Notes under the pieces: model-generated
What the model was told of the DNA's origin: nothing
What the model saw: the letters and a program-made list of their open reading frames with translations, nothing else
The model's database searches: none
Part shown: in pieces, positions 21,612 through 23,791 of the stretch
Position numbering within the stretch: the first letter of the stretch is position 1
Layout: every line of letters begins with the position of its first letter
Source of the DNA: Eledone cirrhosa
Taxonomy: Eukaryota
DNA length: 64,000 nucleotides
Assembly (NCBI GenBank): GCA_964016885.1
Contig: OZ024740.1
Span: 113,212,001 to 113,276,000, forward strand
Direction of reading: 5' to 3'
Translations under genes and position numbers: made by a program

Positions 21612-22093
21612 TTATATATATATATATATATATATATATATATATCTTACCATATTTACTTTGTTTTATATATATATATATATATATATATATATATATA
21701 TATATATATATAAGTTGAAATAAAATGAAAACGAAATTTCATTTCTCACTCATAATACGGCACTTACTTAATTGTAAGTATGTATGTATACGTACATACA
21801 TATATGTATACAGACGCACAGTAGCATGTATATATATATATATATATATATATATATATATATATATATATATATATATATATATATATATATATATATA
21901 TATATATATATATATATATACATATATATATATATATACATACAGGTACACATACATATATGCACGTATCAGTTTAGCGGACGCTTATTATAACGCCGCT
22001 TTGTTCTTTGGTAAACAAACTGAACAGACTGAATTTATGCCATACGGTGTTAAGGCAACCACGTCACCTTTTTGTTCAACACTGACACAGGAA

Positions 22094-22134
22094 CGATGTA
22101 CTAGTTTCAAGCTTGTTAGGTATCATCAACACCG
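22094..22134 (-). ncRNA. Mutated hammerhead (family H)
   Basis: Core reads TTGATGA and stem II has a mismatch; probably inactive. Confidence 0.6.
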
Positions 22135-22450
22135 TATACCCTTCTGCCAGATAGTTGAAAGTTTGAAAGTATATACTTTCCTTATGAAAATTAACGGCTG
22201 AGCAGCCTAATTTGCATATCGAGTGAGTTAAATCGGTCAGGCATACCGAAAACGATAAGTTGAAATAAAATGAAAACGAAATTTCATTTCTCACTCTTAG
22301 TAGGGCACATACTTAAATGTAAGTATGTATCGTTTTCGGTATGCCTGACCGATTTAACTCACTCGATATGCAAATTAGGCTGCTCAGCCGTTAATTTTCA
22401 CAAGGAAAGTATATACTTTCAAACTTTCAACTATCTGGCAGAAGGGTATA

Positions 22451-22491
22451 CGGTGCTGATGATAGCTAACAAGCTTGAAACTAGTACATCG
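22451..22491 (+). ncRNA. Minimal type I hammerhead ribozyme (family H)
   Basis: CGGTG-CTGATGA-T-AGCT(AACA)AGCT-T-GAAA-CTAG-TA-CATCG; palindromic CTAG loop III; GUA cut after 22486. Confidence 0.85.
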
Positions 22492-23007
22492 TTCCTGTGT
22501 CAGTGTTGAACAAAAAGGTGACGTGGTTGCCTTAACACCGTATGGCATAAATTCAGGCTGTTCAGTTTGTTTACCAACGAACAAAGCGGCGTTATAATAA
22601 GCGTCCGCTAAACTGATACGTGCATATATGTATGTGTACCTGTATGTATATATATATATATATATATATATATATATATATATATATATATATATATATA
22701 TATATATATGTATATATATATATATATATATATATATATATATATATATATATATATATATATATATACATGCTACTGTGCGTCTGTATACATATATGTA
22801 TGTACGAATACATACATACTTACATTTAAGTAAGTGCCGTACTAAGAGTGAGAAATGAAATTTCGTTTTCATTTTATTTCAACTTATTGTTTTCGGTATG
22901 CCGGACCGATTTAACTCATTCGATATGCAAATTAGGCTGCTCAGCCGTTAATTTTCATAAGGAAAGTATATACTTTCAAACTTTCAACTATCTGGCAGAA
23001 GGGTATA

Positions 23008-23048
23008 CGGTGCTGATGATAGCTAACAAGCTTGAAACTAGTACATCG
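23008..23048 (+). ncRNA. Minimal type I hammerhead ribozyme (family H)
   Basis: Same sequence as 22451-22491. Confidence 0.85.
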
Positions 23049-23456
23049 TTCCTGTGTCAGTGTTGAACAAAAAGGTTACGTGGTTTCCTTAACACCGTAT
23101 GGCATAAATTCAGGCTGTTCAGTTTGTTTACCAACGAACAAAGCGGCGTTATAATAAGCGTCCGCTAAACTGATACGTGCATATATGTATGTGTACCTGT
23201 ATATATATATATATATACATGCTACTGTGCGTCTGTATACATATATGTATGTACGTATACATACATACTTACATTTAAGTAAGTGCCGTACTAAGAGTGA
23301 GAAATGAAATTTCGTTTTCATTTTATTTCAACTTTTCGTTTTCGGTATGCCTGACCGATTTAACTCACTCGATATGCAAATTTGGCTGCTCAGCCGTTAA
23401 TTTTCATAAGGAAAGTATATACTTTCAAACTTTCAACTAACTGGCAGAAGGGTATA

Positions 23457-23497
23457 CGGTGCTGATGATAGCTAACAAGCTTGAAACTAGTACATCG
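23457..23497 (+). ncRNA. Minimal type I hammerhead ribozyme (family H)
   Basis: Same sequence as 22451-22491. Confidence 0.85.
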
Positions 23498-23791
23498 TTC
23501 CTGTGTCAGTGTTGAACAAAAAGGTGACGTGGTTGCCTTAACACCGTATGGCATAAATTCAGGCTGTTCAGTTTGTTTACCAACGAACAAAGCGGCGTTA
23601 TAATAAGCGTCCGCTAAACTGATACGTGCATATATGTATGTGTACCTGTATGTATATATATATATATATATATATATATATATATATATATATACATGCT
23701 ACTGTGCGTCTGTATTCATATATGTATGTACGTATATATACATACTTATATATATATATATATATATATATATATATATATATATATATAT

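Follow-up and report, generated by a model that had tools for sequence, protein, structure and literature searches.

A head-to-head array of hammerhead ribozyme units in Eledone cirrhosa, a probable new animal retrozyme family moved by PLEs

Anatomy of the array

The window, i.e., the whole stretch of DNA analyzed here, covers 64,000 nt of the Eledone cirrhosa genome and contains an array of a non-coding repeat with one hammerhead ribozyme (HHR) per unit. The unit comprises 429 nt plus a TA block of variable length, which measures 128, 20, 48 and 116 nt in the copies termed A, B, C and D, respectively; an earlier, sequence-only reading had likewise recorded that each unit holds its own variable (TA)n. 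The GC content of the unit is 0.36 (36%), and its longest ATG-initiated ORFs are 40 aa (sense) and 81 aa (antisense). We found no RT or GIY-YIG ORF within the array and no LTR–internal–LTR layout in the alignment of the units.

On the left, a (TA)n target tract (21667–21712) abuts the fixed 3' end of the element. It is followed on the minus strand by unit D (21712–22256), a full-length version of 545 nt that ends at the fixed 3' boundary, and by C3' (22257–22329), the last 73 nt of a unit, positioned head-to-tail with D. The head-to-head inversion junction (22328–22330) displays a 3-nt microhomology, TAT, with zero added bases. Beyond it, the plus strand carries unit A (22329–22885, 557 nt), which starts at the unit boundary, unit B (22886–23334, 449 nt) and C5' (23335–23748), the first 414 nt of a unit, which stops 63 nt short of the boundary. 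The right (TA)n tract (23747–23792) is common to the array and the neighboring 5'-truncated PLE-2. The unit terminates in a 3' hairpin and a T-rich end (23293–23334, plus strand, in unit B); the hairpin, which is formed by the solo copy described below too, is a candidate RT-recognition and initiation signal.

The unit boundary, marked here by a slash, reads ...CAACTT/ATCGTTTT... The plus block begins at this boundary and the minus block finishes at the same boundary, while the 10-nt sequence TACATACTTA closes the plus block and opens the minus block. The parts of units (557+449+414+73+545) equal four units plus the 10-nt overlap, and no indel interrupts the sequence at any of the five HHR sites. 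We read the array as four units that entered (TA)n in a single event. The sequence-only reading had recognized the internal strand switch between an inverted block, D and C3' (21712–22329), and a direct block, A–B–C5', but missed that the two are complementary parts of one four-unit insertion. In the inverted-repeat listing, D and A appear as mirror arms 70 nt apart.

The hammerhead motif

A scan for CTGANGA...GAAA recovered identical cores, CTGATGA...GAAA, on the plus strand at 22456, 23013 and 23462, matching the previously reported three identical tandem HHRs with spacings of 557 and 449 nt; the 43-nt motif is letter-for-letter equal in the three copies. On the minus strand, the scan gave a variant at 49184 and a degraded copy near 22132. 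The type I HHR of unit A (22450–22492) has its predicted cut after 22486 (GUA), that of B (23007–23049) after 23043, which corresponds to unit position 158, and that of C (23456–23498) after 23492. Helix I is ACGGUG/CAUCGU (6 bp), with a predicted extension containing an internal loop. Helix II is AGCU/AGCU (4 bp) with a 4-nt loop and, at its base, a U.U pair in place of the G10.1-C11.1 pair. Helix III is the palindrome ACUAGU, and the cleavage site is GUA.

The earlier designation of these ribozymes as "minimal" did not hold up. The canonical metazoan type I HHR has been defined by a 6-bp helix I, a 4-bp helix II and a helix III of 1–2 bp with a palindromic loop, as opposed to the min-HHR of PLEs, which has only the conserved nucleotides of helix III, a helix II of 7–8 bp, a helix I of 4–5 bp and an extra base between positions 9 and 10.1 (PMC4209133). 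With a 6-bp helix I, a 4-bp helix II and a 2-nt palindromic insert, the array motif is a canonical metazoan type I HHR by these definitions, and we dropped the label min-HHR. Canonical HHRs also possess a G10.1-C11.1 pair, which U.U replaces here, and a tertiary contact between loops 1 and 2. Copy D fails them: its HHR (22135–22093, minus strand) has the mutated core previously noted in the inverted block, with C3>U at 22129 and a G>C change in helix II at 22120, and given these changes it is probably inactive.

A helix-checked descriptor, which the D and solo HHR copies do not pass, detected seven cores in the window, three of them in the array; on 100 block-shuffled windows it gave a mean of 0.11 and a maximum of 1. 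Rfam returned a sub-threshold match of the array HHR to Hammerhead_HH9 (17.6 bits against a gathering cutoff of 52, E 0.063). For the whole window, the 150 matches listed out of 183 were solely microsatellite-driven matches to miRNAs and snoRNAs. Another CTGATGA...GAAA motif, with a short hairpin and a palindromic ACGT, lies at 52156; it failed the helix I test.

Divergence and kinship of the units

Outside the TA blocks, the four units show 21 substitutions over 1716 sites (1.2%) and no indels; every substitution is private to one unit, with seven in D. As the units differ at just 1.2% of their sites, the identity of the HHRs is expected and is not evidence of selection. Indeed, selection as the cause of the three identical HHRs was rejected, with two changes observed in the 172 HHR sites versus 2.1 expected at the unit-wide rate. 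All four units have T at 22982 and C at 23132, where 99.3% and 99.95% of the depth in a public sequencing run (X1, see below) is G and A, respectively. These two shared X1-rare alleles indicate that all four go back to a single unit of recent date. That unit may have been multiplied by copying around a circle, or the four may have come from a source array that was homogeneous; the private differences fit both.

A solo copy and the fixed 3' end

The diverged solo copy reported by the sequence-only reading spans about 48880–49250 on the minus strand, with its HHR core at 49184 and an A.C mismatch closing helix I. It is a 5'-truncated member of a second subfamily, 79–89% identical to the array unit, with a short (TA)n next to its 3' end. 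The array and the solo copy finish in the same register beside (TA)n (two of two insertions), and one of the two is inverted. In unit B, 291 nt separate the predicted cut from this shared 3' end downstream of it. As the predicted cut is at unit position 158, no observed end coincides with it: of three 5' ends and three 3' ends examined, none is at the predicted cut site. We rejected ends set by ribozyme cleavage; that the ends lie away from the predicted cut is a feature that the earlier reading had overlooked. The insertions display several PLE-type traits, namely a fixed internal 3' end, 5' truncation, an inverted 5' copy and a (TA)n target.

PLEs in the window

By means of tblastn, we mapped three PLEs within the window. 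PLE-1 (2685–14669) is a near-perfect, head-to-head fold-back of a 5'-truncated Hydra-type element around a 7-nt loop (8783–8789), with a 722-aa open frame on each arm and HHRs at 14471 (plus) and 2883 (minus) that feature a 116-nt helix II region. PLE-2 (23791–27560, plus strand, 3' end approximate) is 5'-truncated and broken; it retains RT, CxCX5C linker and GIY-YIG regions, with two stops and a frameshift in the RT part. PLE-3 (33700–36886, minus strand) is a broken Hydra-type element with a degenerate HHR core (CAGAAGA) at 33793, shortly before a (TA)n tract. All three have a CxCX5C linker before the C-terminal GIY-YIG domain, together with DKT in PLE-1 and PLE-3 and DKA in PLE-2. DKT and CxCX5C are diagnostic of the HHR-bearing, (TA)n-inserting Hydra clade (PMC8557442), and the window PLEs carry motifs that point to this clade. 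Protein homologue and Atlas searches yielded PLE-like relatives, while Pfam gave no match on PLE-1 or on the two PLE-2 frames searched.

Within the window, the unit has no sequence homology to PLE-1, PLE-2 or PLE-3. Against PLE-2 and its 3' region, nothing past 12-nt TA/CA words was recovered, in line with the earlier statement that the unit does not match the PLE-2 terminus. The accompanying claim that the array is unrelated to the adjacent ORF is true of the sequence; the element is nevertheless probably PLE-derived and PLE-dependent. The cut site is ~35–63 nt from the 3' end in the window PLEs and 291 nt or more in the unit. Inverted or strand-switched insertions are a known feature of PLEs (PMC8557442, PMC3846280), and the PLE-1 fold-back with its own HHRs shows that inversion is ordinary for PLE insertions in this window. 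Further, a purified PLE protein has been reported to cut and extend both target strands, to initiate inside its RNA and to accept uncleaved RNA (PMC11167929).

Several other repeats lie in the neighborhood. Two copies of a different PLE-type 3' end, also with an HHR, face each other head-to-head over a short stretch at 16500–16720 (cores at 16588, minus, and 16627, plus). A 615-bp tandem of 4.5 copies that are 99.9% identical (17349–20131) and a 606-bp tandem of 2.6 copies on the opposite strand (29879–31446), 81% identical to the former, both sit between (TA)n tracts and have one end in common. A relaxed scan found no HHR in either, and Rfam nothing meaningful in the 615-bp repeat; they may form a non-autonomous PLE family that lacks a ribozyme. 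At 54866–58286 (minus strand), weak RVT_1 and zf-RVT matches mark the remains of a further RT element. The window also contains SINE-like repeats and microsatellites that may suggest an octopus genome.

The family in sequencing runs and related ribozyme loci

Part of the unit's words occurs in 20 of 24 run rows from 15 studies, which we do not take as evidence of range; among the listed runs carrying unit words there was no RNA run. Unit B, skipping 23182–23334, was compared with four of the 24 listed public runs (X1, X4, X16 and X22). It matched 3434 contigs in X1, which is possibly the window's own sample and in which the summed depth of up to 2 million should not be read as a copy number, 15 contigs in X4 and one (151 nt, depth 4) in X16; X22 gave no reads for the comparison. 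Both X1 and X4 have array-type and solo-type forms, and among the loose ends listed for these runs the unit's own 3' end precedes the unit start; thus, head-to-tail tandems are not peculiar to this locus. Contigs running on into unlike sequence account for none of the 3434 in X1 and for 0.54 of the 15 in X4, though a rare copy linked to an ORF could easily escape notice in contigs this short. Taken with the solo copy and the three window PLEs, the 3434 X1 contigs mark the unit as repeated, dispersed and accompanied by PLEs.

In X1, none of the 13 HHR core positions varies at ≥5%, compared to only ~7% of positions that do so elsewhere. Across 23011–23053, just N7 and one loop II base vary at ≥5%, both of them tolerated positions. 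This conservation of the core counts as modest support, and is weak when taken alone.

The exact HHR pattern had no match in metagenome and viral contigs. A relaxed version of the pattern matched 52 metagenome and 13 prokaryote loci, and these 65 show no likeness to the unit beyond the ribozyme. Helices I and III are formed in six of them, all with a palindromic helix III. These six (L004, L019, L022, L029, L007 and L038) are unrelated loci whose HHRs have a U.U-closed helix II and different helices I. Four of them have terminal direct repeats; L007 lies beside an RT-like frame and L038 beside a 6-nt tandem repeat. An HHR with a U.U-closed helix II also follows the ORF of L040, a Hydra-like PLE, on its 3' side; this locus was chosen by its tblastn match and fails the helix filter on account of a 4-bp helix I. 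The recurrence of this helix II type in six of 65 unrelated loci and in L040 supports a real ribozyme motif of the PLE type. A covariation count over eight rows was set aside as biased, with four of the rows picked for pairing. Apart from these, four metagenome contigs of ~1 kb (L015, L030, L039 and L051) share a common hammerhead-like core at ~800-nt spacing that is unrelated to the unit and have single-match relatives (e.g., L002, L003 and L009); they may be circular RNAs or tandem repeats.

Folding and predicted cleavage as a dimer

The whole unit folds more stably than its shuffled versions (z −6.8); minus the TA block the z-score is −2.9, with 65% of the bases paired as a circle. In the monomeric HHR, a 2-bp helix III is sterically forbidden, and the predicted MFE structure is an inactive conformer (−8.7). 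In the dimer, the double-HHR fold is predicted at −19.0 kcal/mol, against −20.9 kcal/mol for the best dimer fold. Given the palindromic helix III and the canonical geometry, cleavage is expected only as a dimer. A lone HHR should accordingly be inactive, and dimeric cleavage of the plus block should release monomers of 557 and 449 nt. In the axolotl HHR_Amex2, whose helix II likewise has a U.U at its base, the dimer is the more efficient form in cleavage (PMC7229834). Among Xenopus retrozymes, one of nine dimers was cleaved and eight were not (bioRxiv 10.64898/2026.07.22.740005). The proposal of the sequence-only reading, a non-autonomous retrozyme-like family with dimer-type cleavage, accordingly draws support from the anatomy, the head-to-tail context in X1 and X4 and published precedent, tempered by the mixed outcome in Xenopus.

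In a predicted fold of a read-through RNA across the D–A junction, 93% of 801 nt are paired. Such a hairpin would block the HHR of unit A and could feed silencing.

Origin of the array

On balance, we favor the view that the array is a non-LTR retrozyme of the non-autonomous kind, and that PLE-type reverse transcription from two ends inserted it, using a template that ran uninterrupted through the ribozyme cut site. The unit itself probably originated from the 3' end of a PLE and probably relied for its movement on a Hydra-type PLE, targeting (TA)n and acting in trans. Under this model, a PLE endonuclease would cut both strands of a (TA)n tract. The first target end would then prime reverse transcription at a fixed internal site, namely the unit boundary beside the 3' hairpin, with the copying of D and a further 73 nt. 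Priming from the second target end would take place inside that same template, at its TA-rich block, with the copying of 2.9 units. Finally, the two cDNAs would be joined by the 3-nt microhomology into a head-to-head block of four units with a 10-nt overlap. The template running across the ribozyme site may have been an uncleaved multimer or a ligated circle, with about equal chances. The anatomy, junctions, divergence and family context are observed directly, whereas we infer the enzyme, template, cleavage and expression.

The complementary breakpoints fit priming from two ends on one template, as in L1 twin priming. A chance stop of the second cDNA at the boundary would have a probability of ~1%, or 1–4% given the TAT microhomology; the two breakpoint coincidences come to 1–4% and 11–25% after allowing for TA microhomology. 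The stop would reflect either an RNA that began there, or a collision on a circle, or chance. In the collision scenario, the array would be the footprint of a circular ribozyme RNA reverse-transcribed from both cut ends by a Hydra-type PLE, with each cDNA stopping at the other's start. This would account both for a sum that comes to four units give or take a few bases and for ends that bear no relation to the cut site, but we regard it only as a tentative, rather unlikely version. Our preferred reading of two-ended reverse transcription rests on one array and one solo copy with full junctions.

A different view of the unit itself is that it is the bare pLTR or 3' end of an autonomous PLE family, in which case the array would be a multimer of it without an independent non-autonomous lineage. 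L040 shows that the U.U type of HHR can reside in a Hydra-like PLE, and matches to known TEs have been reported for 24 of the 57 retrozyme families of Xenopus, with PLEs making up 21 of the 22 matched TEs (bioRxiv 10.64898/2026.07.22.740005); the X4 contigs that continue into unlike sequence point the same way. We nevertheless consider it quite doubtful, as the listed loose ends before the unit start in X1 and X4 are the unit's own end, the X1 contigs feature no unlike run-on, homology to an ORF is absent in the window, and the distance from cut to 3' end in the unit far exceeds that in the window PLEs. Other alternatives retain the family and concern the inversion. The switch might stem from a snap-back of the cDNA (a 72-nt loop, TAT pairing and reiterated copying of D) or from a later inversion of a direct tetramer between TA tracts. 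The closely spaced mirror arms D and A invite such an explanation, as does the interrupted long TA block that these two units share, which a fold-back would predict. Self-priming has also been proposed for PLE palindromes (PMC3846280), and PLE-1 is itself a fold-back, albeit with a perfect symmetry about its short loop that differs from the geometry of the array. A snap-back, however, leaves unexplained why the plus block ends within 10 nt of the minus block start and needs extra slippage to obtain 2.9 units from one, whereas a later inversion should have left TA remnants at the junction, where there are none; we thus judge this explanation decidedly unlikely.

It is harder still to credit that the array and PLE-2 constitute one composite insertion, wherein the RT copied PLE-2 RNA and then switched to the unit RNA. 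The plus block does adjoin PLE-2 in the same orientation and has no canonical 3' end, and the damage to PLE-2 is compatible with a similar age. Yet 46 nt of (TA)n intervene at a point where the unit has no TA run, and repeated insertion into one TA tract is expected of (TA)n-targeting elements, rendering this account highly improbable. Lastly, the region is rich in repeats, and tandem and inverted PLE structures are known to trouble assemblies (PMC8557442). An inversion created by misassembly or a chimeric read is still barely credible, given that D has its own substitutions, that the two arms mirror each other only inexactly and that breakpoints 1.4 kb apart are complementary.

Significance and comparison with known systems

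Neither component is new by itself: PLE inversions have been described before, as have non-LTR retrozymes, from cnidarians, mussels and amphibians, among others. The mobilization of animal retrozymes by PLEs is a hypothesis drawn from shared HHRs, co-occurrence and pLTR phylogeny (PMC7229834; bioRxiv 10.64898/2026.07.22.740005), the mechanism of which is described as remaining to be elucidated (bioRxiv 10.64898/2026.07.22.740005). The present locus places PLE insertion features (a fixed internal 3' end, a (TA)n target and a head-to-head block) on a retrozyme-type repeat, which makes it likely that the array represents an animal retrozyme family that is new and moved by PLEs. It names a candidate helper clade (Hydra) and offers genome-wide testable junction predictions, including those of a circular versus a linear template. 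If the circle-collision scenario were true, it would supply direct, structural evidence of the passage from circRNA to genome that has been proposed for animal retrozymes. Our literature search found neither an inverted retrozyme insertion nor the present family, and the word "ribozyme" is absent from the available text of PMC13282606; the supplements of PMC7229834 and the bioRxiv study and Lunse et al. 2017, outside the search, may list such families.

The array resembles metazoan non-LTR retrozymes (PMC7229834; bioRxiv 10.64898/2026.07.22.740005) in being a non-coding tandem with one type I HHR per unit, a GC content below 50%, a self-paired fold and co-occurring PLEs. Non-LTR retrozymes are further characterized by having no LTR, PBS or PPT; for the array, the unit alignment gave no LTR–internal–LTR layout. 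[quoted passage not shown] The unit length is within the 51–972 bp range of the retrozymes of Li et al. 2026 (bioRxiv 10.64898/2026.07.22.740005); it exceeds the 150–450 bp of those of Cervera and de la Pena 2020 (PMC7229834) because of the internal variable (TA)n. Unlike the described non-LTR retrozymes, the array, known here from its DNA sequence alone, has a head-to-head block. Beyond the U.U pair shared with Amex2, the two ribozymes differ in helix III: Amex2 has 2 bp and a tetraloop, with 22% monomer cleavage (PMC7229834), while the array HHR has either 1 bp and a tetraloop or 2 bp and 2 nt. With this shorter-closing helix III, the array HHR is expected to be more dimer-dependent than Amex2.

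Hydra-clade PLE insertions (Craig et al. 2021, PMC8557442) are likewise directed to (TA)n, carry HHRs and feature a partial tandem together with an inverted 5' copy and an extension at one end only. The array differs from them in being devoid of an ORF and in its one-sided extension of 63 nt versus 30–40 bp, and from PLE-1 in having complementary blocks rather than a fold-back. MRC1-type elements of Chlamys (PMC8557442) are also non-coding PLE derivatives with multicopy head-to-tail insertions. They resemble the 3' end of their autonomous partner, whereas no partner homology of the unit was found in the window, and, unlike the unit, Chlamys elements mostly lack canonical HHRs. Finally, L1 twin priming (PMC2912911) parallels the array in that the second target end primes internally to give an inverted 5' part, and in microhomology at the 5' and inversion junctions. 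In the array, the TSD is unreadable because the target is (TA)n, and the differences from L1 are a template that would be a tandem or a circle, the absence of poly(A) and a first priming event that was apparently internal.
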